From assembly GCA_964495905.1 (NCBI GenBank), contig CAZBWN010000078.1:1566-65565 (forward strand): a stretch of 64,000 bases of DNA. Direction: 5' to 3'. How positions within the stretch are numbered: position 1 is the stretch's first letter; each line of letters begins with the position of its first letter. Shown here in pieces: positions 8,742 to 63,041 of the stretch. This DNA is from an uncultured Candidatus Peribacteria bacterium (GTDB lineage Bacteria; Patescibacteriota; Gracilibacteria; Absconditabacterales; Absconditicoccaceae). The notes below the pieces were generated by a model. It saw only the letters and a list, made by a program, of their open reading frames with translations, was not told the origin of the DNA and ran no database searches. The translations under genes were made by a program, and so were the position numbers.

Positions 8742-9362
8742 TTAAGTAGGGATACTTTTTAAATATGTGATAACTTCATCGCTTAGACGTTTGAGTTTTG
8801 CTTTGAATGCGGTACTATTGTCAATAACTCGTATGTGACGATGAGGTTTCCATGCTTTTTTTGTTTTTTCATCTACGATTTGTGCTTTTGGAAGATCTTC
8901 ACTTCGTATTTTGTTGGTTTTTGACCCATAAGAAGCTTCTGCTCCAATAGCTGCACTTACAAGATGAAATATTGCATCATATCTTTTTCTGATAGATGTA
9001 ATAGTTAGCTTGTGCTTTTTGAGGATATCTATGAAATCCTTTCGAGAGAGATATGCCATTCCATCCATGATAGCACGATCATGTATGATCAGTATTTTTG
9101 GATACTTATGCTGTTTGGCAATATTGTAAATCATATCCTCTTTGTGTATTTGATCAAGAACGATTTGTTCTTGAAATGTTTTGACACAGATTCCTTTATC
9201 AGAAATTTCAAAACCTGCATTTAAGAGATCTGTTGCTGTTTCTCTACAGATGAATACTTTCCATCCTAATTTTTTTGCTTTTCTTTTTATAGGGTTTACT
9301 CCTAATGTTTTTCCTCCACCGGGACCTCCTGTGAATACAATTCTTTTGATGATCTGTTTCAT
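8742..9362 (-). CDS. P-loop ATPase (AAA_28/NadR-like ATPase family, tentative)
   Basis: Intact track ORF with Walker A FTGGPGGGKT. No in-frame TGA among about 12 Gly codons (hand count). Confidence 0.65.
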   Translation of the reverse strand: MKQIIKRIVFTGGPGGGKTLGVNPIKRKAKKLGWKVFICRETATDLLNAGFEISDKGICVKTFQEQIVLDQIHKEDMIYNIAKQHKYPKILIIHDRAIMDGMAYLSRKDFIDILKKHKLTITSIRKRYDAIFHLVSAAIGAEASYGSKTNKIRSEDLPKAQIVDEKTKKAWKPHRHIRVIDNSTAFKAKLKRLSDEVITYLKSIPT

Positions 9363-13560: not shown

Positions 13561-14208
13561 ATGAAAAAACTACTATTTATTTTATTACTTGTGAGCTCTT
13601 CGAGTCTTACATTTTCTGAGTCTACTGAGAGAATGGTTCGTGTCTATGGAGATTATCCTATAGAAAAATTGGATTTTTTTCAGTCAATATCGCGTGATAC
13701 TTTGATCTTTGATCATGTAGATACTATTTACAATACAGGTTGGGAATGGGGATGGTTTATCCCTGAGTCTAATAATCTTTGTATACAGAATTCGTATTAT
13801 AAGGTTAATGTTACTCCCAATACTATTAGTGGTGGGGATTTCATCTTCGTATCTAAGTGTCATCAAGGCAAAAAACAAGTAATCGCTTCTTATTTTTCTA
13901 ACTCACGTTGGATATATTGGATAGCTTTTTTCTTGGTGGTATACATCCATTACCTTGTCTATGATCGTTTGAAACGATTTTTGTTCAAGCTCAATAGGCG
14001 TGGTAGACATGTTCCCGTTCAACGTAAGATGAACGAAACAGCAGCTGCGGTGATTATCGTTGTGCTCTGTACCGGTATGTTTGGATGGTATATTCATTCC
14101 TACTTCTTCTTGTTTTGCCCGATAATCTACCTTCTCTTTATGCTTATGCCTTCCGGCAGATGGCATCACTATTTCACAAAGAGAAGTGAAAGGGCAATTG
14201 GAATCTAA
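13561..14208 (+). CDS. hypothetical membrane protein with signal peptide (tandem paralog 1)
   Basis: Intact track ORF: MKKLLFILLLVSSSSLTF..., C-terminal TM helices. Paralogous to 14351..14995. No TGA codons. Confidence 0.65.
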   Translation: MKKLLFILLLVSSSSLTFSESTERMVRVYGDYPIEKLDFFQSISRDTLIFDHVDTIYNTGWEWGWFIPESNNLCIQNSYYKVNVTPNTISGGDFIFVSKCHQGKKQVIASYFSNSRWIYWIAFFLVVYIHYLVYDRLKRFLFKLNRRGRHVPVQRKMNETAAAVIIVVLCTGMFGWYIHSYFFLFCPIIYLLFMLMPSGRWHHYFTKRSERAIGI

Positions 14209-14350: not shown

Positions 14351-14995
14351 ATGAAAAAACTATTATGTATTTTATTGCTTGTGAACTCTTGGAGTCTCAC
14401 ATTCGCTACCACGCAAAGAAAGGTTGTTGTCCATGGGGAATTTCCTATAGAAAAACTTTCTTTATTGTCTTCAATTCAACATGATACCGTTATTTTTGAC
14501 AGAACTGAAGTCGGTTCTCTTGAAAAATGGGAATCGGGATTTTTCTTCGCTCACCAATACAAAGCGTCTTATCTGCAGGATTATAATTATCGGGTTGAAT
14601 GTAAAAAAAATCTGATAACTGTATATGAAAGCACTTCTTCTGAGCCACGGAATGTAGGTCCTTATTTTTTGACTCCACTACTATCTCCTTGGTTTCTGGT
14701 CAGTGTACCTTTAATTCTGCATTTGATTCTGTTTTTGTACTTGCGAGGTCGTCTGTTTCGTATCTATCGAGATGATAGATCTGTTACATTACGACAACAA
14801 CGTAAAGAAAAAATGACAGTTGTACTGATAATTACATTGCTTGCTCTACTTTTGGGTTTCTTTTGTAGGTCTCAGTTCTTTATCCTTTTTTCATTGGTGT
14901 ATCTGGGATTTATGTTCCAAACTGCTAAATCGTATTCCCGTTCGGGGAAGATCGATGGTGATCTCTTTATCGGACATAGATGGCTCGGAGTATAA
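14351..14995 (+). CDS. hypothetical membrane protein with signal peptide (tandem paralog 2)
   Basis: ATG at 14351 inside track ORF 14285..14995: MKKLLCILLLVNSWSLTF...GEFPIEKLSLL..DTVIFD, matching paralog 1 (GDYPIEKLDFF..DTLIFD). Confidence 0.65.
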   Translation: MKKLLCILLLVNSWSLTFATTQRKVVVHGEFPIEKLSLLSSIQHDTVIFDRTEVGSLEKWESGFFFAHQYKASYLQDYNYRVECKKNLITVYESTSSEPRNVGPYFLTPLLSPWFLVSVPLILHLILFLYLRGRLFRIYRDDRSVTLRQQRKEKMTVVLIITLLALLLGFFCRSQFFILFSLVYLGFMFQTAKSYSRSGKIDGDLFIGHRWLGV

Positions 14996-19977: not shown

Positions 19978-20727
19978 TTATACTACTTGATTTTTTTTGA
20001 CCATCATATCTCGAATTTCTGTTGAACGATCCCAATCTTCTGCTTCATTTGATATTTCAAGCTCTTTTTGGAGTTCTTCTACCGACATGTCTTCAAGTTT
20101 TCTGTTTTTTAGTTTATCCAGGATGAACTTTAAGATGTTTTCATCTGCAAGAAAGTTTACTATTGTTCCCCCTTCGCTTTCTTCTTCATTTAATTCTGAG
20201 AAATCTTGTTCGTATGTCTTGAGTACCTCAAAACTCATTTCTTCTAATTTTGCTTTGATATATTTTCTTAATGCTTTTCTATCCTCAAGACAATCTTTTT
20301 CCTCAGGTGAAGTACCTAAGCTTTGATTTATCCTTACTAAAGATTCAAATAATTCATTCAAATCCATTCTTGGATAGAGTTGTTTTCGATAATCGGATTG
20401 TTTGTAAACTTCAATTTTTACAGGGTAGGGACCTATGATATCTTCATTTTCTTTGATAGCTTTCTCTTTTTTTTGATCTATCTTTTCATGATAGAAATAA
20501 AAAGCTATGTTGAAGTCTATCTCAAAGTCGTCTTTCCCTGCCCCAATTCTTTTGATAGGGATGATGTGTGATTTTTCTGTGTTTTTAGTTGCTGAGATAC
20601 TCCCATTACTATCTATAAATAGATTGTTATCTATAAGAGTCACAGCTCCTGCAGATAGGTATCCCTCTTGTCCAACTTCCATTTGAAACATCAGGGTGTT
20701 TACCATAATAATTCCGTTGATTTTCAT
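19978..20727 (-). CDS. hypothetical acidic protein with C-terminal UVR-like motif
   Basis: Intact 249-aa track ORF, no TGA codons. C-terminus ...VEELQKELEISNEAEDWDRSTEI(CGA)DMM resembles the UVR (UvrB/UvrC) helical motif. Confidence 0.6.
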   Translation of the reverse strand: MKINGIIMVNTLMFQMEVGQEGYLSAGAVTLIDNNLFIDSNGSISATKNTEKSHIIPIKRIGAGKDDFEIDFNIAFYFYHEKIDQKKEKAIKENEDIIGPYPVKIEVYKQSDYRKQLYPRMDLNELFESLVRINQSLGTSPEEKDCLEDRKALRKYIKAKLEEMSFEVLKTYEQDFSELNEEESEGGTIVNFLADENILKFILDKLKNRKLEDMSVEELQKELEISNEAEDWDRSTEIRDMMVKKNQVV

Positions 20728-28995: not shown

Positions 28996-29196
28996 ATGAT
29001 AAGCATCAACAATCAATGTATAGGATGTGGCATGTGCCAAAGCATAATTGATACTGTTTTTAAGGTTGAGGGTATACCAGCAAAAGTCATCAGACAACCA
29101 AAAACACCTGAAGAAGAAAAATTATGTGAACAAGCAATAGAAAGTTGTCCTACACATGCTATACTTAATGATGCAAATATGAAAATGGCAGCATAA
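28996..29196 (+). CDS. small ferredoxin (single 4Fe-4S cluster type)
   Basis: CIGCGMCQ ... C..AIESCP, 66 aa, intact in the track. Confidence 0.75.
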   Translation: MISINNQCIGCGMCQSIIDTVFKVEGIPAKVIRQPKTPEEEKLCEQAIESCPTHAILNDANMKMAA

Positions 29197-41060: not shown

Positions 41061-41444
41061 ATGAAAAATGAAAATCCAAAAAATATCTTGGTAGTCGATG
41101 ATTGTCCAAATGATCAAAAATTAGTTACTTTGCTTTTACAAAGAAGTTTTGACTGTATCATCCATATTGTGGATTCACTTACTGCAGCAAAAACAAAACT
41201 TCAATCTGAAGAATTTGATATCATCACTTTGGATGGTATGCTTCCCTGTCTTATTAATGGAGGCTTTGGATATACTCTTATTCCTTTCATCAAAAATTTT
41301 CAGAGTTCGGAGTGTAAGATCATCATGATCTCTGGAGAACGTACACATGTTGAAAGAGGTATGAAATTAGGTGCCGATTATGGTTTGAATAAGTATGATC
41401 TTAAAAAAGAAAGCAAGTTCAATCAAAATTTTGAACTTGTGTAA
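41061..41444 (+). CDS. orphan response-regulator receiver (CheY-like) domain protein
   Basis: NILVVDDCPNDQ..., FDIITLDGMLP, KIIMISG. 127 aa with no output domain. No TGA. Confidence 0.75.
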   Translation: MKNENPKNILVVDDCPNDQKLVTLLLQRSFDCIIHIVDSLTAAKTKLQSEEFDIITLDGMLPCLINGGFGYTLIPFIKNFQSSECKIIMISGERTHVERGMKLGADYGLNKYDLKKESKFNQNFELV

Positions 41445-43771: not shown

Positions 43772-44731
43772 ATGAACATATTCAAGAAGGCGATATTAAT
43801 AATTACTCTGGCTATAACCGGAGGTATTTTGGGTGGGGGATTTACTTATGCTGTGGCACCTTCCTTCAATGCTAATTTTGCCAATTATCTTACTGATACC
43901 ACGCCTGATAAATATGGTAGGGTAGAGACGGTTTTTAATATCGGTATTGATAGAAATCTTAGTTTGATGGATAATGTAAAGAGATTATTTTATCCAAGCA
44001 GTGCTGCTATTACTGATGCAAATTGAAATACTATTCCTGCTTGAGGTAATTTATGGACACTTATAAGAAGTCTATGATTTATCATCCTTTTTATCTTCTT
44101 GGTCATGACAGGGGTTAATTTCATTATGCAGGCCAAGGAGGCAGATGGTCCAAAGAAAGCTTTTTCGAGCCTTATTTATATCCTTTATGGCGCTTTTTTG
44201 GTTTTTGGAGTGACGTGGATCCTTTGAACCGTCTTGGATATCGGTAATCTTCAGGGAAGCGGACAACTCGTAGATAGGGTCCAAAATGTATTGTTTCTTC
44301 AAATATTATCATTTTTTAAAGTACTTGCATTTTTTGTCGCTATCATCATGTTGGTGGTATCTGGATTTAGGATGATGGCAGCAATGGATAAGTCTGATAA
44401 AGTTGCTATAGCGAGAAAATGAGCGATCAATGTTGTGATTGCCTTAGTATTTATCAAGGTGGTTGATTATGTCTTTTATATCGCTCAAACACCAGCATTT
44501 GGTACAAAAGCTGCTGATATGATTGTCAATGTCGCCGTTGTTCTTTGATGGGTTCTTGGTTCTCTCTTCGTACTTGCAATCTTTTATGCATGATACCTTC
44601 TGATTGCTTCTTCAGGTAAAGAAGATGCTTTCAAAAAAGCTAAATGAATCATCGTAAATATTTTTGTCATTTCTTTGGTGATATTCTTATTTCTTTTGAT
44701 TGTCTACCAGGTGTTTAATGAATTTGGGTAA
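43772..44731 (+). CDS. polytopic membrane protein with repeated VirB2-pilin-like modules
   Basis: Track ORFs 43772..44026 and 44234..44422 are in frame. Repeated pattern TM-(M.A...DG/DKSD.)-K-TM. 960 nt. Confidence 0.45.
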
Positions 44732-44970: not shown

Positions 44971-45153
44971 AGTAAACAATTATCAATTCAAAATTACGAA
45001 TTACGAATAAAAAAATAAAATATTACTATCTTTAAATTCGTAATTAATAATTCGTAATTTGTAATTGTCTTTCAAGGCATTGTCAAATACGGTTTTATTA
45101 CTGTTGACTTTGTTTTGCATCATCTTTTTATTTTTTTAATATCCTTTTCACTT

Positions 45154-45420
45154 ATGGTAAAGAAAACAACAAAAGAAACTGGGCCAGAATCATTCAAACT
45201 TCATGGCACTGACACAGGATCTGTAGAAGTCCAAATCTGACTTTTGACAGAAGAAATCGCAGAATTACAATGACATCTTGCTTTGCACAAAAAAGATTTT
45301 GATGCTAAAAGATCATTGCTCAAAAAAGTTGCTAGAAGAAGATCATTCCTCAAGTATCTTAAAACTAAAAAGTTGTCTACGTACAACGCTATATCAAAAT
45401 CAGTAAGTGTAAAAGTATAG
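45154..45420 (+). CDS. rpsO: 30S ribosomal protein S15
   Basis: [49 protein letters not shown]. 267 nt. Confidence 0.9.
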
Positions 45421-45527: not shown

Positions 45528-46934
45528 ATGGCTACTGTAAGTATAATAGAACAATTACGTTCTGGAAAAATAGTCATGCCTATCATCAAGGAATGACACA
45601 AAGTAAAAGGAATCGTACTTAAAAAAATCGAAAATGGTATTTTAGTAGATTGTGATAATTACGCATTTACTGGAGTTATCTTATCAAAGGAAGTTAAAGA
45701 ACTTGAAAGATCTGGATATGAATTAGATCCAGGAAGAGAAATCGAACTTGAAATCGTAAATACTAATATCAGGCATGAAGATGGACATTATATCGTATCT
45801 ATCACCAAATTACTTCAATACGATATCTGGAAATCCATCATGAAGAAATTTGAAGCTGATGATGTGATCACTGTGATCCCTACTGAAGCAAATCTTGGAG
45901 GTCTACTTGTAGATATGCATGGAATCAAAGGATTCGTTCCATTGTCTCAATTGGCTCCTATCCATTATCCAAGAGTAGAAGATGGTGATCAAGAAATCAT
46001 TTTTGAAAAACTATTGGATTTGATCGGAAAAGAACTCAAAGTAAGAATCATCAATATCGATGAAGATGAAAAGAGAATCGTGTTATCAGAAAGAGAAGCA
46101 CTCAAGGAAGAGAGAGAAAATATCCTCAAAGATCTTGAAGTCGGAAAAATATACGATGGAGTTGTGAGCGGACTTTCTTCATATGGATTATTCGTGACTA
46201 TCGGATGAACTGTTGAAGGTTTGGTACATATCTCAGAAATTACCTATGGACACGTTAACAATATCGAGAAGCTTGGAAAAATAGGTGACAAAATCAGTGT
46301 AAAAGTCATTGGATTAGAAAATGGTAAGATATCACTTTCTAGTAAAAAATTGAAGGATGATCCACGGACAGCGTTACCAAAAGAATACAAAATCGGTGAT
46401 TACATCGAAGGAGAAGTCATCAGATTCGTTCCTTATGGAGTATTCGTGAGAGTGTTTCAAGATATCAATGGATTGGTGCATTTGAGTGAACTTTCACAAA
46501 AATCTATCCAAAACCCAAATGAAGTCGTTAAGCTCGGACAGATCATCAAGACAAAAATCATCTTGCTTGATCCAAAAAATAGAAAGATTTGATTGAGTAT
46601 GAAGGGTGTAGATGATGATAAAGCTGCTTTAGAAAAAAAGGTTGCTGCTCCATCAACTCCTACAGCTCCAAAAGCTGTAGCTTCTAAGACAGAGACTCCT
46701 GCACAAGCAGTTCTCCAAGAAGAACTTATCCCTGCACAAGCTCCAAAGAAATTTGAAGGTAAAGGATTGGCTGGAATAGTCAAAAAACTTTCTGAAGAAA
46801 AGCTTGAAGATAAAGCAAAAAGAATCACTGATAAGCTTGAAAAAAATCCTGACAAAAAGGATAAGGTAGTAGAGAAAGACAAAAAACCTGCTGCTAAAAA
46901 AGTTGTTACAGAAAAGAAAGTAGCTAAAAAGTAA
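45528..46934 (+). CDS. rpsA: 30S ribosomal protein S1-like protein (four S1 domains plus Lys/Ala/Pro-rich tail)
   Basis: Track ORFs 45840.., 46221.. and 46593.. are in one frame, joined by TGA. Repeated GxVxxxxxxGxFVxxxxxxxGLVHxSE modules. KKLKDDP(CGG) corresponds to the conserved DPW. Confidence 0.85.
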
Positions 46935-46954
46935 TCATATACTAAACTATAAAG

Positions 46955-47008
46955 ATACCGTATGTCCCTCCGCCACGGCGGACAAGTGTGACTGCGGTAT
47001 TTTTTTTG
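46955..47008 (+). terminator. compound hairpin terminator
   Basis: Outer stem ATACCG/CGGTAT enclosing TCCGCC-acg-GCGGA, followed by T8. Confidence 0.6.
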
Positions 47009-47093
47009 TTTCATTATAATTCATTGATTTTCTGTATTATATTCTTAAAATGTCAACTAAACAAACAAAAAAATAACTAAAAAAAATAAAAAT

Positions 47094-48038
47094 ATGAAAA
47101 AACAAATGGAAAAAATAATCGATCCTGTTGAAGTAAAATTACTTGAACAAGAACTTAATACAGATACCTTTTTACGCCCTGTAAATAGAGGTGCTAATGA
47201 GTTGTATATTATTCATAAAGAAGATTGTCCTCATGTGATGCAGGAAATTGGTCGTCTTCGTGAAATCACTTTTCGTGGTGCAGGTGGAGGAACAGGTAAA
47301 TCATCGGATATCGATGAATATGATGATTATTTTCATCAGTTGGTACTATGGAATCCGGATCGTAAGGAAATTGTCGGCGGGTATCGATTTGCTTGCATGT
47401 CTAAACTTGTTGATAACAATACAATCAACAGTCCTACTCATGAAATCTTTCAATTCTCCGATACTTTTATCAAGGATTATCTTCCTCGTACTATTGAACT
47501 CGGACGTTCTTTTGTACAGCCAGAGTATCAACCGATCAGAAATCCTAAAGCAGGATTATTCTCTCTAGATAATCTGTGGGATGGACTTGGTGCTTTGGTA
47601 GTTGATTATCCTAACATCACTCATTTTTTCGGTAAGGTCACTATGTATCCTAGTTTCAATTCTCAGGCTCGCAACTATATTCTTTTTTTCTTACAAAAGT
47701 ATTGTCCGGATACTGAACATTTGATGTTGCCTGTCTATCCTATACAGGGGTTGGATAAAGAAATCGATCTTCTCGCAAAATTTCTTGATTATGGAAGTTA
47801 TGATGATGATTTGAAGCATCTTATGGATGCTGTTGCTGCTCTGGGAACAACTATTCCTCCTTTGGTGAAACAGTATATGAATCTTTCTCCGACATTAAAA
47901 ACATTTGGAACTTCTATTAGTCCTTCGTTTGGAGATGTTGAGGAAACTGGTATGTTGATTACGATTGCTGATATTCATTCTAGAAAAAAAGATCAGCACG
48001 TTGAAACGTACCGAAAATATAAATTACATAAAAAATAA
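47094..48038 (+). CDS. GNAT-family N-acyltransferase (hemolysin-like/OlsB-like Acetyltransf_5 type, tentative)
   Basis: Intact 314-aa track ORF: LRPVNRGANELYI, LREITFRGAGGGTGKS.DIDEYD, VGGYRF, ELGRSFV.PEYQ. 0 of about 20 Gly codons are TGA (hand count). Confidence 0.65.
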   Translation: MKKQMEKIIDPVEVKLLEQELNTDTFLRPVNRGANELYIIHKEDCPHVMQEIGRLREITFRGAGGGTGKSSDIDEYDDYFHQLVLWNPDRKEIVGGYRFACMSKLVDNNTINSPTHEIFQFSDTFIKDYLPRTIELGRSFVQPEYQPIRNPKAGLFSLDNLWDGLGALVVDYPNITHFFGKVTMYPSFNSQARNYILFFLQKYCPDTEHLMLPVYPIQGLDKEIDLLAKFLDYGSYDDDLKHLMDAVAALGTTIPPLVKQYMNLSPTLKTFGTSISPSFGDVEETGMLITIADIHSRKKDQHVETYRKYKLHKK

Positions 48039-48089
48039 TTCTATTCTGAAAATTATCTACGATCTCCCTGTTTTTCTGGGAGATTTTTT

Positions 48090-49001
48090 TTATATTTCTA
48101 TAGTCACTAATTCATTTTCTGGGTCTCTAAAAACTAGTTTATATGCGGTCAATTGCATCGGTGTTGTCTCTTTAGGGTCACCGTATAAGTAATCTCCTAC
48201 GATAGGTAATCCATGATGAGAAAGGTGGTATCTGATCTGATGTGTTCTTCCTGTAAGGATTTCAAGATTGAACGTGATGGTTGTATCAGTTTGTTTAACT
48301 ATTTCCATGATTTTTGTGATTCATATCTTGCTTATGGTATGGGGTAATTTTGCGATGACGGGCTCTTCGATGATATACGGAAATTCTGTTATATTTTCTA
48401 TAAAATCTTTACCTTCAGGTGTAAGATATGATGTTGCCCTATAAAATTTTTTGAGTTCTGTCTGTTCTTTATCATCTATGCTTTTGCTTTCTGATTTGGC
48501 TTGGAACAGTTTCTTGAAATGTTCTAGTCATTTTTCTGTCTTTGCGATGATCATAAGTCCATCCGTGTTTTTATCGAGCCTATGAATGAGTCCTGCTCTG
48601 ATGAAGTTTCAAATAGTCGGTAAATTTTTGTAGGTATGATACAGAAATCCTACTACTGATGCTTCATCTACCTCTCGAACGGTTTTGGGGTGAGAAAGCA
48701 CGCCTTTGGGTTTGTTGATGATAAGATAATCATCTTTTTCAAGCAGTACAGGGATATCTATATTTGGAGCTTCATTGAGTACGACAGGGGAGAGATATCT
48801 TGTTATATTATCAATATCTATCTGGTCGTTATTTTTGAGCTGATAAGACTTTTTTATGACTTTATTGTTCACTTTCACTCCTCCTCTTGAGATAATATGG
48901 TGAAAAAAGCTTCTGGAATAAGAAAATTCTTTACTCAATCGAGTATCTATCCTTCCCTCCTTAGGGGCGGACAAGTCTCCTGCTCCTTCATATATAGTCA
49001 T
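48090..49001 (-). CDS. RluA-family 23S rRNA pseudouridine synthase (RluD-like, with S4 domain)
   Basis: S4-like N-terminus ([29 protein letters not shown]), [25 protein letters not shown]. Two track fragments in frame. 912 nt. Confidence 0.88.
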
Positions 49002-49717: not shown

Positions 49718-49900
49718 TTATTTTTCTTTTATCAGTGCATCTATCAGATCTTCCATCTCTTCCATAAATTTTTCATCTTTGTCGAGTCCGTTTTCCTTGA
49801 TTACGTCCATCACTCGATCGAGTCTTTCCTTTTTTGCTTGGATTTTTTTGATGTCTTTATCGTCTATGATACTCAAATCTATAGGTTGTGCTTTTGTCAT
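49718..49900 (-). CDS. hypothetical small acidic protein (60 aa)
   Basis: Intact track ORF whose ATG directly abuts the stop of the upstream gene (49901..49903). Confidence 0.5.
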   Translation of the reverse strand: MTKAQPIDLSIIDDKDIKKIQAKKERLDRVMDVIKENGLDKDEKFMEEMEDLIDALIKEK

Positions 49901-51373: not shown

Positions 51374-52351
51374 TTATAGGCTAAAACCTACTTTTTTATA
51401 TATATCCTCTATTTTTTTCTTTGCCATTTCATTTACTTTCTGTGTGTTTTTGTTGACGAGATCTATGATCTCTTGATCGGATATTTCCGCATATTTTTTC
51501 TGGATAGGGAGTACAAAGGCAAGTAACTTTTCGTAGAGATAGTCTTTTGCATCTTTATAACTCAATCCTCATGCCAGATATCTTTTTCTTAATGTTTCAT
51601 TTTCTTCTGGTGTCAAAAATAATTTACAGATATTATATACGTTACATTCATCCGGATTTTTTGGTTCCTCGATAGTCAAGGCGCTTGTCGGGATCTGTTT
51701 AACCCTTTTGAGGATAGTCTTTTCGTCGTCGAGAAGTCAGATGAAATTATTATATGATTTACTCATTTTACGTCCATCTATTCCCATAATCAATCCTACT
51801 TCCTCCTTGATATACGGTTCAGGGATCTTAAATGTCTCTCCAAATGCGTTGTTGAACTTCATAGCTATATCTCTCGCGTATTCCACATGCTGTTTCTGGT
51901 CTTTTCCTACGGGGACAAGGTCAGTGTCGTATAATAGGATATCAGCCGCCATCAAGATAGGATAACAGAATACTCAGACATTGATCTCTTTGGCTTTCCC
52001 TTTATCCAAAGCATCTTTGTACGTATGCATCCTCTCCATAAATCACATATTTGTGATACAGGTAAGTATCCAATTGAGCTGTGCATGTCCTGGAATCTCT
52101 GCAGGATTGTAGATCAAAAATCTTTCTAGATCCACTCCGCATGCTGCATACAACTTGATGATATTGATACCATTTCTTCTTAGTCTTATAGGGTCTTGCA
52201 CGCTATTGAATGAATGCATGACTGCCAAAAACATGAAAATCTCTGCATCTTTGAATTTGTCTGCAAGGTCTAGCATCGGTTTTACCGCTCAGAAATAATT
52301 TCCGATATGGATTTGGTCACTTGTTGCTTGAAGTCAGGTTAGAATCCTCAT
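51374..52351 (-). CDS. trpS: tryptophan--tRNA ligase
   Basis: [22 protein letters not shown] (HIGH), [13 protein letters not shown] (KMSKS). Three track fragments in frame. 978 nt. Confidence 0.92.
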
Positions 52352-52457
52352 GTATTGGTGTGTAGAAGTTAAAGTATTTATCATTGATATCATAGCGTTT
52401 GGGTGAATTATTTCAATAGATAGAGAAAAACTGTGTCTTTAGTGTAATATCATAAAC

Positions 52458-53578: not shown

Positions 53579-53670
53579 TCTTATTAAAATAAATTTATTT
53601 ATTTGACTTTTATTATTAAATATGTATACTTTTGATTGATAAAAATTTATTTTTTTAAATGCTATTACAT

Positions 53671-55023
53671 ATGAATAAAGAGAATTTTACTTCTTCAGAA
53701 TGATATAATATGAAAGATGCTATTTCATTGGGTTCGGATGATCAGGCCACTCAAAAAATTTCTGATATTTTATCTGATAGTTCTAAACTTATAAATATTA
53801 ATTGAAATGATAATAAATGGATTGAATATATAAAACAGAAAATGAATGATAAATCTCTTTCTCCAAGAGAAATTTCATATTATAATCGTATCTTGAGGGT
53901 ATTATCAATGCCTGATTTATCTAAACAACCATGACATCCTATAAATTTAGTCATTAATAAAATTCTTTCTGCTCATTTTTTTGAATGATTTGATCATATA
54001 GACGTACCTCAATTTGTTTCTGAATGGGAAACTTTTGATTTATTTAATTTTCCTGAAAATCATGTAGCTAGAAGACCGAGCGATAGTTATTTTGTCAATA
54101 AATCTGAAATCAAAAAAGAAAGCATTCTTCTTAGACCACATACTTCAGTAATGTGGTACCACTATTTGATAGAATGAAAAGCAAAAGAAATCTTGGAAAA
54201 AACTTGAGAAGTAAAAGCATTATCTTTTTGAAAAGTGTATCGTGTAGATGAGCTAGATAAAACTCATCATGAATGTTTTCATCAAATTGATGGATTAAGA
54301 ATAACATCAAAAGAGAAAGAAATCATTAATCAAGATACATTGAAAGAGGTATTATCAAATACGATCAAAGCACTTTTCTGAGAAAATGTAAAGTTTAGAT
54401 TTAACCAAGATCAATTTCCTTATACAACAGATAGTTTGGAGGTTGAGGTTGAATTTGAATGAAAATGGTTGGAGGTTTTATGAGCATGAGTAGTACATCC
54501 TACTGTTTTAGAAAAATTATGATTAGATTCTACCAAATATAATTGATGGGCTTTTGGTTTTGGTATAGATAGATTAGTAATGGCATTGAAAAAAGTACCA
54601 GATATAAGAATTCTTCGGAGTGAAGATAAGAGAATCACTTCTCAATGGTGAAATCTTAATCCATATAAGGAAGTAAGTAATTTTCCTCCTGTTTATAAGG
54701 ATATATCTTTTGTTACTTCTAAGGATAAATTTGTAAAAAATACAGTAGAAATGGAAAAATCATGAAAGATTGAATTGATAAATGAAGCTGATTCATTTGA
54801 TTTGGCTGGTATAGCAAGAGATGTTTCATGATGACTTATAGAAGAAGTTAGGGTAATAGATATTTTTGAAAATGATAAAAAATTTGGTAATGATAAAAAA
54901 TCTGTGTGTGTGAGAATTACCTTTAGATCCTTAGAAAGAACGCTTACTAATGAGGAAATAAATATAGCTTATTTCAAAATAAGAGAAAAATTAGAAAAAG
55001 AACTTAATTATGAATTAAGATAA
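53671..55023 (+). CDS. monomeric, mitochondrial-type phenylalanine--tRNA ligase (class II core fused to FDX-ACB anticodon-binding domain)
   Basis: No ORF in the standard-code track. With TGA=G, a continuous 450 aa: HPINLV, FPENHVARRPSDSYF, LLRPHTSV, F-G-KVYRVDELDKTHHECFHQIDGL, -G-A-G-VVHPTVL, -G-WAFGFGIDRLVM, PDIRIL(CGG)SED. C-terminus FPPVYKDISFV...CVRITFRSLERTLTNEEI = FDX-ACB fold. Confidence 0.85.
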
Positions 55024-55033
55024 TTTAATTCCC

Positions 55034-55062
55034 TTGACATTAATCTCTATTTTAATATAAAT
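55034..55062 (+). promoter_or_regulatory. sigma70-like promoter of the peptide/radical-SAM operon
   Basis: TTGACA (55034..55039), 16-17 nt spacer, TATAAA/ATAAAT (55056..55062), about 50 nt upstream of ATG 55111. Confidence 0.55.
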
Positions 55063-55110
55063 ACTTTGATAGATTAAATCTTTTGTATGTTTTATATTAT
55101 AATATATAAT

Positions 55111-55227
55111 ATGGAAAACAAAGAAATTCAAGTTAAAAATGTTTGTGAAGAAAAGGATGCTAAAGAAAACGTGGTAGAAGATTATTATGAAGCAGAATCT
55201 TGGCAGTTTAGTGGTTGTTGAGATTAA
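55111..55227 (+). CDS. 38-aa candidate precursor peptide (RiPP-like): MENKEIQVKNVCEEKDAKENVVEDYYEAESWQFSGC-G-D
   Basis: Small ORF directly after the promoter and directly upstream of the enzyme genes. Acidic leader-like N-terminus, C-terminal SWQFSGCGD. The penultimate codon is TGA (Gly in code 25), with true stop TAA at 55225..55227. Confidence 0.6.
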
Positions 55228-55231
55228 TAGA

Positions 55232-55260
55232 AATGGGAGGAAAACTCCCATTTTTATTTA
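55232..55260 (+). terminator. hairpin plus T-run after the peptide gene (partial terminator/attenuator)
   Basis: AATGGGAG-gaaaa-CTCCCATT followed by TTTATTT, 14 nt before the next gene. Confidence 0.55.
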
Positions 55261-55273
55261 TTTAAAAATATAA

Positions 55274-55906
55274 ATGATTACATTATCATTTTGAGTAAAT
55301 TTATTATGAATAGAATATTTTAGGTCAAAATTTAATAAGACTTTTGATCTTGATGTATGTTCTGCTGACGCAAAGATAGCATGTAATGAACTCATTTTTT
55401 TATGGGATAGTGTTTCATCTGATATAAATTTTATTATAGAACAATTCTTTTGAGAGATTCATTATGATTTGAAAGTTGAAGTTTATCCAAAATATTTTCT
55501 TTTGTGAGCCATAAATATTGAAAAATGACTTATTGTCCTATGACAACCCAAAAGATCTGATTTTTTTTATTGATGATTGTTGTTACATGAATTAATTCAT
55601 TTTGTCTTGAAAGATAGATGATTAAATAGATTTATTGAGGAAACTATTTGTTTTCTATTTGAAAGAATGTTTATATTGAAATATGATTGAGCAACTATTG
55701 ATGATTTTCAATATGATAAATGAACTGATGATTTTCATACATATGCAATTATGTATTCAAAAGTTTTTTTTGATGATTTTATGCTATTTTATGCGAAATC
55801 TGATATTAATTGATTAATAAATTTTTTGAATAAAAAAATCGATAACTCTAAAAAGGAAATCACTATCGAAAATAATTTAATAGCTTATCTATCAAAAAAT
55901 GCATAA
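55274..55906 (+). CDS. HExxH-motif protein (putative zinc metallopeptidase)
   Basis: 633 nt open with TGA=G. ...DFFY-GG-LLLHELIHFVLKDR-G-LNRFIEE.... No further family recognised. Confidence 0.55.
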
Positions 55907-57206
55907 ATTCTATTTTAAGAAAGATACGTTGATTAGGATAGAACATTTTTGAATTCTATTATTGACTTTGGATTGAAGAAGATTTTCTATTTGAAATGAG
56001 TTTAAACCTATTCTAACTCATATCCATTGATGAAATATTGATTTATTATTAAAGTTTGGTAAAAAAATCTGAGAAACTAAAATTGTAAGGCTTATTGAAG
56101 CATTGGTAGAAAAATGAATATTGATATATTCATTAAAAAAGATTAATTCAAAATTAAGAATTATTGAAAATGATTTTATTTCAAATGATTGTTTAAGTTT
56201 TCCAAGAACTGTTTATTGGGAATTGACACAATCCTGTAATCTTGAATGTATCCATTGTTATTCAAACTCTATGGTAAAATGATTCAAATGATTAGATTTT
56301 GATACAATTAAAAAGACTATTGATGAATTGATAGATAAATGAGTTGAATTCTTAAATATTTGATGATGAGAACCATTGATGTATAAGGATCTCTATAAGA
56401 CATTGGATTATGCAATATCAGGATGACTTGTGATTGAGATGACAACAAATTGAACTTTAATAGGGGAAGAATCGATAAAAAAATTAAAACAAGTCTGAAT
56501 GAAATTCATTCAGATAAGTCTTGATTGATCATGTAAAGAAATTTATGAAAAAATCAGAAAAAAGTCAGATTTTGACAAAGTGATTAATTCAATAAAGTTA
56601 TTGATTGCTTCTTGATTTGTTGTTTCTATCAATACTGTATTGATGAAACATAATAAGGATGATATCATAAATATAATTAAATTATGCAATAGTTTATGAG
56701 TTAGTTATTTCAAGGTTTCTCCATTGATGGAGACATGAAGATGATTTACAAATATGGATAATATCCAATTGAGTTTGATTGAATATAAGAAAATATATAA
56801 AACGTTACTTAAATATAAAAAAGATCATTGATCTGATGCCATCAAAATCATAATATATCAAAATATATTAAAACCTGATGTCAAAAATATAAATTGGATG
56901 CCAAAAGAACATTTTTGATGCCCCGCATGAAGGACTACATGTTGAATAGATCCTTATTGAAATGTATATCCTTGTTCATATATGAATCAAAAAGAATTGT
57001 CTTGTGGTAATATTAAAGAGCAATCATTGTCTGATATATGGTCAAAATCAGAAATAATGGCTAATATCAGAAATATTGATAAAATCTCATGAAAGTGTTC
57101 ACATTGTAAATTCTTGGACTTGTGTAGATGATGATGTAGAGCAATGGCATATTTAAGATATAAAAAAATAGATGCAACTGATCCTTTATGTGTTGTAAAT
57201 TTATAA
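55899..57206 (+). CDS. radical SAM/SPASM enzyme with N-terminal PqqD/RRE-like domain (rSAM-1)
   Basis: ATG overlaps the previous stop (ATGCATAA). TQSCNLECIHCY (CxxxCxxC), NI-GGG-EPLMY, SPASM -G-CPA-G-RTTC-G-IDPY-G-NVYPC ... CGNI ... CSHCKFLDLCR-GG-CRA ... DPLC. By hand count, 29 of 33 Gly codons are TGA. 1308 nt. Confidence 0.85.
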
Positions 57207-57210
57207 AAAT

Positions 57211-58227
57211 ATGAAAATATCTATAGCTACTAATTGGGATGATGATCTAGTTGATTATATATCAAAATCAAACAATGATTGTTTATCAAATAGCATATGT
57301 GAATTTTTTGCGTCAAAAGCGTTTAGTATCTTATGAAGTGCTAATACTGATGTTCCAGATCTATCGCTTCAAGATATAAAGCAAAAAATATCCTATATAA
57401 AAGATAAAAATATCCAATTTAATTACTTGATTAATTCAAGTAAAATGCCTGATTTAAATGATGAGATAATCAGAAAAAAAGTCTTAGATTATTTGTCATG
57501 GATCAATACATTAGGTATTGATATTCTAACAGTGGCTAGTGAGGATCTTTTAGATCTAATCTATAAGAATTTTCCCAATATCCCCATTAATATTTCTGTC
57601 GTATTATGACTAAAAACTATAGAGAAAGCTAATTATTTAAGAGAAAAATATCCAAATATCGTAAGACTAACTTTACATCAAGATATCAATAGGGATAAAA
57701 AATTATTGGAAGAGCATATTAAAAATGCACATAATCATCAGACACTAAAGCCAGTTGAGATAGAATTATTGGCAAATGAGGTATGCTTTATTGGGTGTTG
57801 ATTAATGAAAGATCATTATGATGCATTAACTTCCTTGTCTCAAAAAAAAACATGAAAAGATTTTATGTTTTGATGGTGCTGCGCCAAAAGAAAAGAAAAT
57901 ATTATTGATTTTATCAATTCTAGTTTTATTAGGCCTGAAGATATGATATTATATGAAGATTTATGAGTTGATATCATTAAATTAGCTTGAAGAAAGGAAC
58001 AAACCAATGAATTGAAACTTAGGGCAAAGGCATATTTAGAAGGTTATTATGATTGAAATATTATGGACTTATTTTTAGCAGAATTTTGGCCTATGAAAAA
58101 ACCTCCATATATTTCTAATTCTTCTTTTAACTGATTTGTAAAGTTTTTATGGGGACAAAAATTAATAAAAATTGATAATAAAGAAATATTTCCATGATTC
58201 AAAAATTTAGATTATAATCGGAATTAA
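57211..58227 (+). CDS. hypothetical protein, peptidase-U32-like (tentative)
   Basis: 1017 nt open with TGA=G, containing track fragment 57427..57609. MKISIATNWDDDLVDYI..., IELLANEVCFIGC-G-LMKDHY resembles the U32 Cys-containing motif. Weak, by eye. Confidence 0.4.
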
Positions 58228-58229
58228 TT

Positions 58230-60176
58230 ATGTATTATAAAATTAAAGACAATGTTTTGTGGAGAAATGAGAAAAATAGTTTTATGATACTCCATCCAGT
58301 ATCAAAAAAATTGATGATATTCTGAAAAGATATCTCAGATTTTGTTAGTAAATGATGAATAATTGATGGATTTAAATTAAAAGATAATGTATCTATTAAA
58401 TATTTGATTAAAGAATCAATTGTTGCTGATTATCTGATTGATTTTGATATAAATAATCACATATTTTGATCTGATAATTTTGTTTCGGCTCCTTTAAATG
58501 TGACGATACAGATAACCAACAGGTGTAATCTACAATGCGGACATTGTCATAAGGTTGATAAGTGATGTGTGAATATTGATAAAGATAGACTCATAACCTT
58601 GATTGATGAACTTCATGAAATGAAAGTGTTTAATATAAATATATCATGATGAGAACCATTGATGTATGAGTGATTATCTGATGTTATAAAATATATAGTA
58701 TCCAAATGAATGAAAATTACTATGTCGACAAATCTCGTACTCTGGGATGAAAATATGGCAAATACAATGCATCAATTATGAGTAAGACAATTACATGTTT
58801 CATTAGATTCAAGTGATGAAACATACCATGATCATATGAGATGACATAAAGGCGCTTATTTGACTACTATTAAAAATCTGGCAATCATAAAAAAAGCTGG
58901 TTTAACTTTTACTTTGGTCACTACTTTGGTTAATCAAAGCATTGATGATTATTCAAAGATCATAGATTTATCATATAAATTATGAGCTAGTTGACATAAA
59001 ACTAATATATTAGTCCCACAATGACAATGAAAGTCTATAGAAACTTGATATTATAAAGATTTAAATTTATTTAAATCATATATTCGTGTTTTTCTTCAAA
59101 AAAAGAAAAAATATGATAAAAAAATGTCTGTGATATGAGAAAGCATGTTCATGATAAGTATCTGAGAAAATATGGATAACAAACCCGATATTTTGAAGTT
59201 ATGGTGTCCAGCAGGAGTGTTGACCTGTGCAATAACTGAAAAATGAAATTTGTTGGCATGCCCCTTTTATACCGAGCTTAGTATGTGAAATATATATGAT
59301 GATTCATTTAAAGATTTATGGACAAAAAGCGTATTGCTTTGAAAAATAAGAGTGTGTAAAGAAAATGATGGTAGTTGATGTCAAGCAAGAGCATATTGAA
59401 TATCCAAATCAATTGAAAATAATGATCCATATATTCATAAAAATGTATATGATGCAAACAATCATGATTTCTATAATAATTCAGCAGAAAATAGAAATGA
59501 TTTTATATCGGTAGTCTGACATTGAATAAAGATTGAATGAGAAAAATGAAATAAAGAGTTCTATTGATTGATACATAATTATTTGATGAGTTCAGACCTA
59601 ACATTGGAGATTTGAACCTGAACTTGAATCGTACCGAAGACTTTGGGTTGTCTGTGAAAAAAGATAATTTCCATCGATTTTTCAGATAATATGTTGAAAT
59701 TGGCAAAAGAAAATTGTAGTATGTATGATAACGTCTTATTTATGAAAGAAGATATACATGCATTGACTTTTAGGGATGGTAATTTTGATCTTATCATTAA
59801 AAGGCTTGCTCCGGATGATCTATGAGAAATATTCAGAGTTTTGAAATTCGGTTGAAATTTCATTAATTTTACAAATTGAGAAAGAGATTGAATGGAATTA
59901 AAAGAACTTTTTTGATTTCCTTTCCATCAAAGCGTTTCTGATTATAAATCTCAATTGGTTAAACAATGATTTGAGATGATATATGAAGATGAATTTGAAT
60001 TTAAGGAAATCTATAATGATTTTGATATACTAATTAAAATGTTACATATAGCGCCTATCATACCTGACTTTTTGGATAGAGAGGCATATTATATTGATAA
60101 AATAAAAACTGAATTTGATGACACTAATTGCTTTGTTTTAACTCGTCATAAATATTTGGTAAATGCAAAAAAATAA
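58230..60176 (+). CDS. radical SAM/SPASM-like enzyme with RRE-like N-terminus, fused to a C-terminal class I SAM-dependent methyltransferase (rSAM-2/MT)
   Basis: TNRCNLQCGHCH, IS-GG-EPLMY, CPAGVLTCAITEK-G-NLLACP. Then LTLEI-G-T-G-T-G-IVPKTL (motif I), ISIDFSDNML, GNFDLII, LKF-GG-NFI. Frame continuity between the halves was checked codon by codon across 59331..59642. Same frame as track ORF 59976..60176. 1947 nt. Confidence 0.8.
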
Positions 60177-61200
60177 ACCATTTGATATATTTACATTGCA
60201 ATGGCATATTACAAATAATTGCCAATTAAGATGCACACATTGTTATGTAGATTTTTCAAAATCTTTTTCAATCAGTATGTCTGATTTTCATAAAGCTATG
60301 AATAATTATAAAAGATTCCTTGCATATTATTGAATAACGTGAAAGGTATATTATACTTGATGAGATCCACTTCTTCACCCAAATTTTTGGAATATTATGG
60401 ATGAAACAAAAAAACATTGATTAGAATCGGCTATATTTTGAAATTTCCATTTGTTGAATGATGAAAATATTCAAAAATTATGTGACAATGATATCAAATT
60501 TTATCAATTGAGTATGGAATGACTTAGAGAGACACACGATAACATAAGATGAGAATGAACATTTATCTGAGTAATTGATTCTATTGCTAAATTAGAACAG
60601 AAATGAATATATACTCTAGTTAATATGACATTATCAAAAATGAATATCGATCAGCTTATACCTTTAATTGAATTTTTAGCATATCATACCAATCTTTCAA
60701 GATTTGATTTTGTAAGAATAGTTCCTATTTGAAAAGCATCAAAAAACATTATGCTTTCTGATGCTGAATTGAAATCTATCTTTTTAAAGATATTGGAATT
60801 GGAGAAAAAAATAAAAAAAGATTGAAAAAAAATGGTTATATGAAAAAAAGATCATTTATGGAAATTATTATATTACCAATCAGATAAACTGAATATTAAT
60901 TTGAAAGACCAAACAGCTGGTTGCTGAATGGGATATAGGCACCTTACAGTAATTGAAAATTGAGATATCTATCTCTGTAGGAAACTACCAATTAAAATAT
61001 GAAATATCATTACCGATGATTTAATAGAAATATATGAAAATAATACAATTATTTCAGATGTATTGAATCTAAATTATGTCGTGTGATGCCACTGATGTAA
61101 ATTGGAATATGTGTGTAGATGATGTCCAGCTGTAACCTATTGATTAAATAATAATTTAACAAAAAAAGATCCTCAATGTCGGCAGAATTATTTATATTAA
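60163..61200 (+). CDS. radical SAM/SPASM enzyme (rSAM-3)
   Basis: ATG overlaps the previous gene by 14 nt. TNNCQLRCTHCY, YT-GG-DPLLH, SPASM A-G-C-G-MGYRHLTVIEN-G-DIYLC ... -G-NI ... -G-CH-G-CKLEYVCR-G-CPA ... DPQC. 1038 nt. Confidence 0.85.
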
Positions 61201-61212
61201 TAATGCATAAAT

Positions 61213-62259
61213 ATGTATATGGCAAATATCGTTATATGAGAAACCTATTGTGTCCTTAATTGTGATTATTGTATGTATACAAAAGATATTAGAAAGATTT
61301 TTTCAGAAAAAGAATTATCTACAGTTTCTGGAAATGTATCAAAAATAAAGAAATTTATAGATAATTATGCAAAGAAAATACAGGTCATATCTCTTACATG
61401 ATGAGAACCTACATTGTTCCCTGATATAATAAAGACTTTTTATGATAAATTTGATAATAAGATAATTAGAGTTTGTACCAATGGACTTTTATTAAATAAT
61501 GAATTATTAGATTCATTTTCTCCTGAAAGATTATATTTTGCCGTAACTTTGGATTGAATTGATTTAGAGGATAATTTATTCAGATTTAAATCTCAAGTTA
61601 TGTTGGATAAAATAATCTCTAACATAGATCTTTTGTTGAATAGATGATTCAGTGTTGAAATATTGACGGTTCTGAGTCCTCAAAATATGTTAAAATATAC
61701 TAAATTGATTGAATATTTTGAAAATAAATATCACAAATATATTGAAAACTGAAAAATATGGTTTATACCTATCGAACTAGTGAATTATATGAATTTAGAT
61801 AAATTTAAGATCAGTGATAAAATGAAATCTGATCTTGTGCTTGATCTCATGTCCTGTAAGAAAAAATCAATTATACTGTCAAGACAGAAAGAATATTTTG
61901 ATGAACTAATATCGTATTATTCATGAAATAGCGTCAATACTTGTGGTATGTATAAACGAGCGCTCCATTTAAAATATTTGGGGGATTCTATTCGAACAAA
62001 ATGATCATTTAATCTTTATTGATGCTGAAGCAGATGACATCTGATGATGTGAACAATGAATTTTAATAATTCATTTGATGCTTCTTTTATATTAGAAAGA
62101 AGAGAAACAAAATCAGTAAAATTATATTTTAAAGAATCGGATAGTGCATGTAAAAAATGTTTTGATAATCGACATTATTATTGATTAATATTAAAAAATA
62201 AATTACATAATGTCCCACATATATTAAAAAAAACAATTGATTTATATCATAATAATTAA
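61213..62259 (+). CDS. radical SAM enzyme with Cys-containing C-terminal domain (rSAM-4)
   Basis: YCVLNCDYCMY (CxxxCxxC at residues 12-19), SLT-GG-EPTLF, C-terminal NTCGMYK, Y-G-C-G-SR-G-, CKKC. 1047 nt. Confidence 0.75.
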
Positions 62260-62261
62260 AA

Positions 62262-63041
62262 ATGGAAGAAAAATTCTTGTTGAATAAAATTTGATCAAAC
62301 CCTAATAGACTTTGAGTCTTAATATGTACTCATGGAGATGAAACATTATGATTTAATGTTATGAAGATGATAGAAAATGTTGTAGATGATCTTACTTTTG
62401 TCTTGATGAATAAAAGGGCTTTTGATATATGAAAAAGATATGTTGAATATGATTTGAATAGGTGTTTCTTGTGAAATATATTGGAAAAATGACTTGATTC
62501 TTATGAATACAAATTATCACAAGAACTTCATGAAATACTAACTTGATTTGATAATATCATTGATATACATTCGACAAATTTTGATATAGATCCATATTTT
62601 ATTATAGATACACTCGAAAAAAAGGAATCAATATTGATTAAATCCGCATCTAATGAATTAATCAAAAATTCCTATCTAATACCTCTTTCAAAATGAACCG
62701 TAATCTGACCTTATTTGAATGCGATAGCAATAGAGTCTTGACCTAATAATGATAAGAAGAAAATACATCAAGTTGCAAACATAGTCAAAAATATATCAAA
62801 TAATATTTGATTTAATCATAACAATGAAAAGGAATTGAATGTTTTTTGATGAGAGTTGACAAAGAAAGATGTCTTTAGATTAAGAGAAGATATTAAAGAT
62901 TTTGATCTAATAGCTAAATGAGCAATTTTATGATATAATGAGGAATGAAAAATTGTGATAGCTAATGAAGATATGAAATTGTTTTGGATAAATAATAAAT
63001 TTGAAGATCCGAATGTTCTTGCAATAAAATTAAAAATTTAA
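62262..63041 (+). CDS. succinylglutamate desuccinylase/aspartoacylase (AstE/AspA, M14-like zinc carboxypeptidase) family protein
   Basis: VLICTHGDETL-G-, EYDLNRCFL-G-, IIDIHSTN. 780 nt with TGA=G. Confidence 0.65.

Follow-up and report, generated by a model that had tools for sequence, protein, structure and literature searches.

UGA is reportedly read as glycine in Absconditabacteria, a finding credited to Campbell et al. in 2013. In the same bacteria CGA and CGG stand for tryptophan, as given in the passages on Absconditabacteria of Shulgina and Eddy (2021; PMC8629427). A genetic code is usually taken as a property of the cell. We analyzed a 64,000-nucleotide stretch, called here the window (G000:C78:1566-65565), from the genome (G000) of an SR1 bacterium present in groundwater metagenomes. 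The bulk genes of this genome follow the Absconditabacteria code, and it has the matching tRNA-Gly(UCA), Trp-like tRNA(UCG) and tRNA(CCG), and CGA at conserved Trp positions. The window carries a glycine N(alpha)-acyltransferase gene, glsB, that is spelled as in the standard code. It was concluded that glsB and at least five other open reading frames (ORFs) of the window are probably members of a class of some 40 resident genes (3-4% of the genome), and that purifying selection probably keeps this class in standard spelling, although in the other genes of the organism TGA means Gly and CGA/CGG mean Trp. One chromosome would then hold two incompatible spellings, both kept by selection. The class genes evolve as if read by standard rules, unlike the genome-wide code in those passages of PMC8629427, where a standard-read gene class was not found described. 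Our literature search found no paper describing a resident standard-code class in SR1.

In stop-codon-recoded phages the early genes remain compatible with the standard code and the late genes are recoded (bioRxiv 10.1101/2021.08.26.457843). Phages that avoid TGA have been given SR1/Gracilibacteria as predicted hosts (Liu et al., 2023; PMC10746230). The SR1 genome resembles these phages in having two codon dialects, in TGA avoidance and in a dialect thought to match the decoding regime. For the phages a switching mechanism has been proposed (suppressor tRNAs, two host types), whereas no switching machinery was found here. The SR1 class is also chromosomal, scattered among housekeeping genes and conserved through speciation, and it involves a sense-codon pair, CGA/CGG, as Arg or Trp. 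The second comparison is with GlsB of Bacteroidota (NF053696; related to the OlsB/OlsF N-acyltransferases), to which the window protein shows a full-length match above the cut-off, with the PF13444 domain and the invariant residues under standard reading. It differs in that the SR1 copies are very divergent, exchangeable alleles outside the Bacteroidota clan and that the organism's own code would give Trp for the invariant Arg98. In Bacteroides the gene of the O-acyltransferase GlsA presumably lies beside glsB, whereas the SR1 gene stands alone between rpsA and the RluA-family synthase gene rluD, with no adjoining glsA-type gene. In the classical amelioration model, alien genes with atypical codon usage adapt after horizontal transfer. 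The class is similar to such genes in that many members have typical transferable functions (for example guaB, purA, thyA and hsdM). It is unlike them in that the ordinary synonymous codons are fully adapted and the three code-defining codons not at all, a combination not predicted by drift.

The assembly (1.27 Mb, 90 contigs, 35% G+C) is 89% complete with 4.8% estimated contamination, and 1095 genes were called with a simple home-made codon-model caller under translation table 25. TGA accounts for 29.3% of the Gly codons genome-wide. G000 proteins with CGA/CGG masked were compared with 400 kb of a genome of the same taxonomic class (87 ortholog pairs). The partner of TGA was Gly at 59%. The partners of CGA were W (35%), Y (11%), L (11%) and also F, with R outside the top six, and the pattern of TGG was alike (W 34%). 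CGG was paired with W at 21%, and CGT, CGC, AGA and AGG with R at 39-56%. This tally was used in place of RpoB and RpoC, which proved uninformative as a CGA test (0 CGA and one CGG in total). The two tRNAs that read CGA/CGG, tRNA(UCG) and tRNA(CCG), have U20, G73 and an N1:U72 pair, as in the tRNA-Trp(CCA) of the genome; its tRNA-Arg(UCU) and tRNA-Arg(CCU) have A20 and A73. On this basis tRNA(UCG) looks Trp-type. By the tally and the tRNA features, the bulk genes are read with TGA as Gly and CGA/CGG as Trp, which is the published Absconditabacteria code.

By profile match, the ORF at 47094-48038 is GlsB of glycine-lipid synthesis. It scored 397.2 bits against NF053696 (curated equivalog cut-off 300), with residues 7-305 on profile positions 1-303, and matched PF13444 (Acetyltransf_5) at residues 55-147 (E = 3.6e-16). 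The enzyme most likely N-acylates glycine and so starts glycine-lipid synthesis, as in Bacteroidota. A first-pass annotation of the window, made from the letters alone, had hand-counted about 20 Gly codons without TGA and had noticed a CGA in VGGY-CGA-F at a presumed family Arg. Both points were borne out: the codon count is 20 Gly and 0 TGA, and the column of codon 98 is Arg in 116/116 database homologs and 75/75 Bacteroidota-type genes. The Arg-type codons are six CGT, two CGC, three AGA and two CGA (codons 98 and 307). Both Trp codons are TGG and lie in invariant Trp columns. The family-invariant Gly, Trp and Arg columns are intact under standard reading, and CGA read as Trp would turn Arg98 into Trp. 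The hairpin and T-run between rpsA and glsB suggests that glsB forms a separate transcription unit; gcggtattttttt of this rpsA terminator is also present in relatives.

In a search of 41 genomes, a GlsB relative was found in 21 of 24 genomes of the same genus and in none of 16 other families of the taxonomic class. All 20 genus loci fetched, and the SR1 metagenome-assembled genome (MAG) L059 as well, have a GlsB-like gene between rpsA and rluD. Compared with the window, the flanks of the genus loci are 59-88% identical and the slot gene just 23-49%. The slot genes are TGA-free in 17/20 loci, where invariant Arg columns contain CGA/CGG and every Trp is TGG; the G009 gene shows a single TGA, upstream of its likely start. 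TGA-rich slot genes were found in G012 (11/29 of Gly codons), G019 (18/30) and G015 (14/30); here TGA codons occupy positions of invariant Gly, and CGA that of the invariant Trp. Nineteen standard-coded SR1 copies contain 364 GGN and one TGA (the G009 one), and at 12 invariant-Gly columns 160 GGN and no TGA. At seven invariant-Arg columns the share of CGA/CGG among Arg codons is 24/98 in these 19 genes vs 127/524 in 75 Bacteroidota-type genes.

The nearest relative, L059 (= G043), is fully syntenic with flanks 74-94% identical, except x49160 at 50-59%. Its glsB (25 Gly, 0 TGA) is 69-70% identical to that of the window at a synonymous divergence (dS) of about 1. Between the two genomes TGA and GGN were switched at 29/132 conserved Gly positions in the flanks (22%) and at 0/18 in glsB. 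Codon 98 is CGA in the window and AGA in L059, a change that is synonymous in the standard code only. Pairs of SR1 GlsB show ratios of nonsynonymous to synonymous divergence (dN/dS) of 0.07-0.20 at dS values of 0.5 to above 2.

In the GlsB tree, 38 Bacteroidota proteins form one clan (95*) and all SR1 copies fall outside it, with the window clade as sister. Identity to the window GlsB is 53-57% for hundreds of Bacteroidota proteins. One SR1 subfamily (B) has SR1-type relatives only among 5.8 billion proteins. At least five allele classes, strongly diverged (23-49% identity), occur in the slot and are scattered on the flank tree (built from rpsA, rluD and the 339-aa gene at 51374-52393). In this respect the locus is like surface-antigen loci, hypervariable between conserved flanks. 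The allele classes disagree with the flank tree: G012 (native-coded) is sister to G022 (standard-coded) (99*), and G008, G009 and G011 form one flank clade (98*) with three GlsB allele classes. A module of rpsA terminator, TTGATT -35, about 17 bases, TAAAAT -10 plus GTCAA and an A-rich leader lies 5' of several standard-coded allele classes. The TTGATT..TAAAATGTCAA promoter and the leader are similar among them, and the same rluD follows downstream. In the three native-coded alleles the promoter differs and the leader is T-rich. The common module implies that alleles move among genomes with these SR1 flanks and not from unrelated donors. The class is long-resident, and recent import is not supported; its dialect and leader persist through speciation, and those of glsB also survive the exchange of very divergent alleles within a fixed slot.

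Genome-wide, 12 TGA-free genes with at least 20 Gly codons were observed vs 0.08 expected under a binomial and 8.0 under a fitted beta-binomial model. Codon content was compared between the 47 TGA-free genes with at least 10 Gly codons and all other TGA bins. The TGA-free genes have 10.4 TGG per 1000 codons (other bins 4.5-5.7), 5.6 CGA+CGG (other bins similar) and a CGY share of CGY+AGR of 0.33 (0.11-0.20). In native genes TGG (5.1 per 1000) and CGA/CGG (6.1) add up to 11.2 Trp. TGG alone reaches 10.9 in the class, which indicates that its CGA/CGG codons are not Trp. CGA/CGG occur at conserved Arg as often as in standard-code bacteria, and all Trp codons are TGG. Outside Gly and Arg, codon usage of class and native genes is correlated at r = 0.97, including the unusual preference of ATC over ATT. 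Members include guaB, purA, thyA, hsdM, a TldD-like protease, a deoxyhypusine-synthase-like protein, a HAD phosphatase, a GT2, an M10 peptidase and a PP2C-kinase cluster. The PurA codons CGA32, CGA147 and CGG341 fall opposite Arg residues of a solved PurA, with the RYQGG and TGRxRRxGW stretches among the sites, and the genus orthologs of purA (48-69% identical) are all TGA-free. Two relatives have instead a PurA-like gene (G002:C15:7922-8788 and G044:C81:23509-24357), 30% identical to G000 purA and with 25-29 in-frame TGA, which is the TGA-rich native counterpart of the standard-dialect purA.

Several other sources of the class were rejected. Only two tiny contigs are nearly TGA-free, so contaminant contigs do not explain it; no TGA-free contig exceeds three genes, and the class genes sit in long contigs amid TGA-bearing genes. 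Expression-level bias does not fit: TGA-free ribosomal-protein genes have AGA and T-rich leaders, unlike the class. PADLOC matches were marginal at best for an anti-phage defence regulon. Context-dependent decoding was discarded since the bases before CGA/CGG are the same in both classes; the codon after CGA/CGG differs as expected from differing amino-acid neighbourhoods.

The class also has an upstream signature. The 20 bases before the start contain on average 10.5 A and 5.3 T in TGA-free genes vs 7.2 A and 8.3 T in others. At least 14 A of 20 were counted in 16/63 TGA-free genes vs 3/782 others (Fisher p = 1e-16), and in 11/40 vs 1/435 where the upstream spacer is at least 80 nt. The A-rich leader is found on 15 standard-coded glsB alleles and is absent from three native-coded ones. 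Of the class members in the window, the five larger ones have 13-15 A of 20 and the response regulator has 11. TGA-free ribosomal-protein genes are without the A-rich leader. AAACAAA lies upstream of 25/33 class genes (43/720 of others) and TTGACTT upstream of 19/33 (11/720). TTGACTT was rejected as a class-exclusive -35 box because native-coded glsB alleles carry it too; by sequence comparison the A-rich leader is the sole cis element that tracks the dialect. The Shine-Dalgarno (SD) core is rare in both sets (5% vs 2%). Class members stand alone as units; their promoter is of the canonical -35/-10 kind, and their leader is rich in A and C but poor in T.

The first-pass annotation had listed further TGA-free ORFs in the window. 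Five of these (the ATPase, the 19978 ORF, the two tandem paralogs and the response regulator) proved TGA-free on counting, and the three CGA codons reported for the ATPase at 8742-9362 were found (table). Opposite these codons its two genus homologs, both TGA-free, have CGT, AGA and CGC. The 13 genus homologs of the ORF at 19978-20727 contain one TGA in 147 Gly codons, with CGA/CGG in columns of AGA, AGG, CGT and CGC; the 'UVR-like' motif once ascribed to this ORF found no family support. Homologs at the CGA sites thus read Arg and not Trp. Every genus homolog of the tandem paralogs is TGA-free, as are 16/16 genus matches of the response regulator in other genomes. Identity within the genus is 27-55% for the families of the ATPase, the 19978 ORF, the two paralogs and the response regulator. 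The 19978 and paralog families are without any family match, which argues that they are no recognisable imports. Three short ORFs once put forward as candidates (6406-6708, 28996-29196 and 49718-49900) have just 5, 3 and 1 Gly codons, which makes their TGA-free status meaningless. The statement that neighbouring genes use TGA for most glycines was wrong: rpsA, rluD (table) and the genome average are all low, and only the block at 53659-63041 is TGA-dominated.

Table. Coordinates of glsB, its surroundings and other ORFs of the window (positions in the window unless a locus is named)
Feature	Coordinates	Strand	Remarks
AAA_28 ATPase	8742..9362	-	assigned to class; 12 Gly, 0 TGA, 3 CGA; leader 15 A/20
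Tandem paralog 1	13561..14208	+	assigned to class; 11 Gly, 0 TGA, 7 TGG; leader 15 A/20
Tandem paralog 2	14351..14995	+	assigned to class; 11 Gly, 0 TGA; leader 13 A/20
SR1-specific orphan	19978..20727	-	assigned to class; 11 Gly, 0 TGA, 2 CGA
Single-domain response regulator	41061..41444	+	probable class member; 8 Gly, 0 TGA; leader 11 A/20
rpsA (ribosomal protein S1)	45528..46934	+	native code, 3 TGA/36 Gly; conserved left flank of slot
Hairpin and T-run 3' of rpsA	46956..47008	+	seen by eye; not listed by scanner
Promoter-like TTGATT-16-TAAAAT	47024..47051	+	upstream of glsB; similar upstream of standard-coded alleles of several classes
Leader of glsB	47052..47093	+	A/C-rich, G- and T-poor; 15 A in final 20 bases; mark of class
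glsB, glycine N(alpha)-acyltransferase, 314 aa	47094..48038	+	NF053696, PF13444; standard-code spelling by codon counts
CGA codon 98	47385..47387	+	family-invariant Arg, R of VGGY-R-F; AGA in syntenic ortholog of L059
CGA codon 307	48012..48014	+	variable, mostly Lys column (K52 I14 L10 N8); AAA in L059
Hairpin ATCTCCC..GGGAGAT and T-run	48062..48091	.	between convergent glsB and rluD; seen by eye
rluD (RluA/RluD-family pseudouridine synthase)	48090..49001	-	native code, 3 TGA/17 Gly; conserved right flank
268-aa ORF in relatives	L013:6227-7033, L014:12996-13805, L017:5932-6807, L022:12824-13627

The thyA genes show the two spellings within one family. SR1 thyA is a single clade (99*) whose nearest outside relatives are 58% identical or less. 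A 'bilingual' form (seven genes) has no TGA, no CGA/CGG and 9 TGG, with 7-11 A of 20 in the leader of six genes (the G000 leader was not recovered). The G000 gene lies at G000:C22:8048-8959 and the genus loci are L180-L199. The native form (11 genes) has 2-6 TGA, 0-7 CGA/CGG replacing TGG, 2-10 TGG and a T-rich leader with 1-5 A of 20. The bilingual form occurs in two separate clades, which argues that the dialect is not set by time since arrival. No second thyA was found in the seven genomes with the bilingual form. Among native-form genes, 9/11 adjoin a TGA-free canonical thyA xenolog (453 bits, NF002497) and the other two loci reach a contig edge. This pattern is suggestive only, and the genomes counted are related.

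We propose that selection acts on the product. Functional class proteins would be made where CGA/CGG means Arg and TGA is unwanted, in a decoding context apart from bulk translation; if selection is on the product, working proteins need such a context. Since promoter and leader are common to the class, its mRNAs may form a set that is co-regulated or handled apart. Candidate contexts may include a stage of life in which other tRNAs are present, decoding components taken from the host, and translation inside a host cell. The first-pass annotation had allowed for UGA being counter-selected for a reason other than import. This part is supported and can be extended, with Trp held on TGG and CGA/CGG allowed for Arg. 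Some findings weigh against the proposal. GlsB by itself is no outlier: the chance of it being TGA-free is P = 0.001 under a binomial and 0.039 under the fitted overdispersed beta-binomial distribution; the class as a whole differs in TGG, CGY and leader. The alleles do not follow the flank tree, which means that the apparent persistence is partly allele exchange and not strict vertical descent. No TGA stop occurs in 19 standard-coded SR1 glsB (12/75 in Bacteroidota), in keeping with termination through the release factor of the SR1 cell itself. Standard-decoding machinery was not found in the genome (89% complete): no Arg-type tRNA for CGA/CGG, no release factor 2 (RF2; no prfB above cut-off), and no second arginyl-tRNA synthetase (ArgRS) or RF2 written in the standard dialect. 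The lack of an Arg-type tRNA(NCG), of RF2 and of TGA-ended SR1 glsB argues against an exotic decoding context. The gene caller is home-made and the start codons of several genes are uncertain.

Recent import, the explanation favored by the first-pass annotation, would have the TGA-free genes arrive lately from standard-code donors such as Bacteroidota, too recently to have acquired TGA or shed CGA, and be mistranslated now. GlsB does belong to a Bacteroidota-type family with hundreds of homologs there and its clade is sister to the Bacteroidota clan; guaB, purA, hsdM and the canonical thyA xenolog of relatives are typical transferable genes, and one class-like gene (on C74, below) keeps TGA-TGA at its natural end. 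The slot is nevertheless kept in 20/20 genus genomes examined, the L059 ortholog has stayed free of TGA at dS of about 1 while its flanks switched, dN/dS is low, no SR1 copy lies inside Bacteroidota, codon usage is SR1-like, and orphan SR1 families have the same dialect. Import is very improbable and already largely refuted; for GlsB and the 19978, paralog and response-regulator families it is not supported, the GlsB copies grouping outside the donor clan and the genus homologs of the other three being TGA-free (for 19978 nearly so, as given above). Next to no chance is left for chimeric contigs or bin contamination. The MAG is fragmented, with some estimated contamination, but genes of the class are embedded in long contigs, with TGA-bearing genes on either side, and the arrangement is repeated in 20 other genomes. 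Two further runs, one of them belonging to another study, gave contigs with identical rpsA-glsB and glsB-rluD junctions, and in a relative of 91% identity rpsA-glsB-rluD is spanned in one piece.

Three further explanations are each unlikely. Alleles from an unsampled standard-code reservoir might be recombined repeatedly into the slot, the residents being young and poorly functional. The scatter of allele classes on the flank tree and at least two dialect changes in thyA would agree with this; the donors must, however, share the promoter, the A-rich leader and rluD, that is, have these SR1 flanks. The SR1-only relatives of subfamily B, the SR1 codon peculiarities common to the class (ATC above ATT) and long purifying selection in pairs of one allele class speak against it, and we give it little credence. 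Decoding could instead be ambiguous or tolerated, with tRNA(UCG/CCG) partly Arg-charged (C35 and G36 are ArgRS identity elements) or Trp tolerated, and with TGA avoidance serving only fast or accurate translation, as it does where expression is high. Shulgina and Eddy, in the part of PMC8629427 on this group, state that ambiguous translation cannot be excluded. Highly expressed genes are indeed TGA-poor (rpsA, and a 390-aa gene with 33 Gly before its first TGA, probably EF-Tu by its length and codon use) and no SR1 glsB uses a TGA stop. Against it, CGA/CGG are undepleted at invariant Arg (24.5% vs 24% in Bacteroidota), in native genes they occupy conserved Trp positions no less often than TGG does, and the class has twice the TGG. 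The two states are also bimodal, a change of state goes with a change of leader, and TGA-free ribosomal-protein genes lack the A-rich leader. Its probability is low. It is likewise doubtful that the class was written for translation by another cell, either the host or prey of an SR1 epibiont or an SR1 cell flooded with host tRNAs. The class mRNAs (or DNA) would then be read by standard-code machinery. The functions of purA, guaB, thyA, the lipid acyltransferase, the kinase/phosphatase pair and peptidases would fit a parasite that is unable to make nucleotides or lipids and reprograms its host's supply, and the consensus promoter with an unstructured, A-rich, SD-less leader could be a signal for handling or for expression in a broad range of hosts. 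T-DNA genes and phage auxiliary metabolic genes come closest as analogies.

If class products are made under standard rules, as selection for standard spelling would imply, a code switch for a regulon or translation outside the own cytoplasm must exist, and neither is known to have been described; the minority spelling has its own promoter and leader signature. Annotation with table 25 gives wrong residues in bulk genes (Arg for intended Trp), and a uniform reading of CGA/CGG as Trp would give wrong residues in class genes. Code-inference tools average across the two classes. The class offers a direct test of codon reassignment as a barrier to gene flow.

The largest standard-dialect block of the genome is a run of four consecutive TGA-free genes at G000:C74:31222-35916 (L136; 41-44% GC), which code for a PP2C phosphatase, a protein kinase and two unknowns. 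On the same contig, a lipoprotein-like gene with an HxH motif (G000:C74:1844-2839; L172:245-1240, minus strand; 31 Gly, 9 TGG) is free of TGA up to a TGA-TGA pair that stands 12 codons ahead of TAA. The pair looks like a standard-code tandem stop that is read through by the SR1 code. Near-identical TGA-free M10 (matrixin-type) peptidase genes open two short contigs (G000:C75:43-858 and C76:43-858); they could represent a repeat or a duplication in the assembly.

A second TGA-poor ORF, CGY-rich and about 268 aa long (table), lies in four relatives between homologs of the window genes 43772-44731 and 45115-45420, an interval where the window has tRNA-Arg(CCU). This ORF was rejected as glsA since it has no family match. 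No RNA run contains the glsB locus. In run X5 contig word depth rises to 365-716 across the glsB leader (window 46952-47193). The jump is likely due to a poly-A stretch matched by short A-rich contigs of other organisms rather than to copy number. The opposite extreme of TGA use is the low-GC block at 53659-63041 (26% GC vs 35%), where TGA makes up 71-100% of the Gly codons, for example 29/33, 38/47 and 12/12 in single genes.

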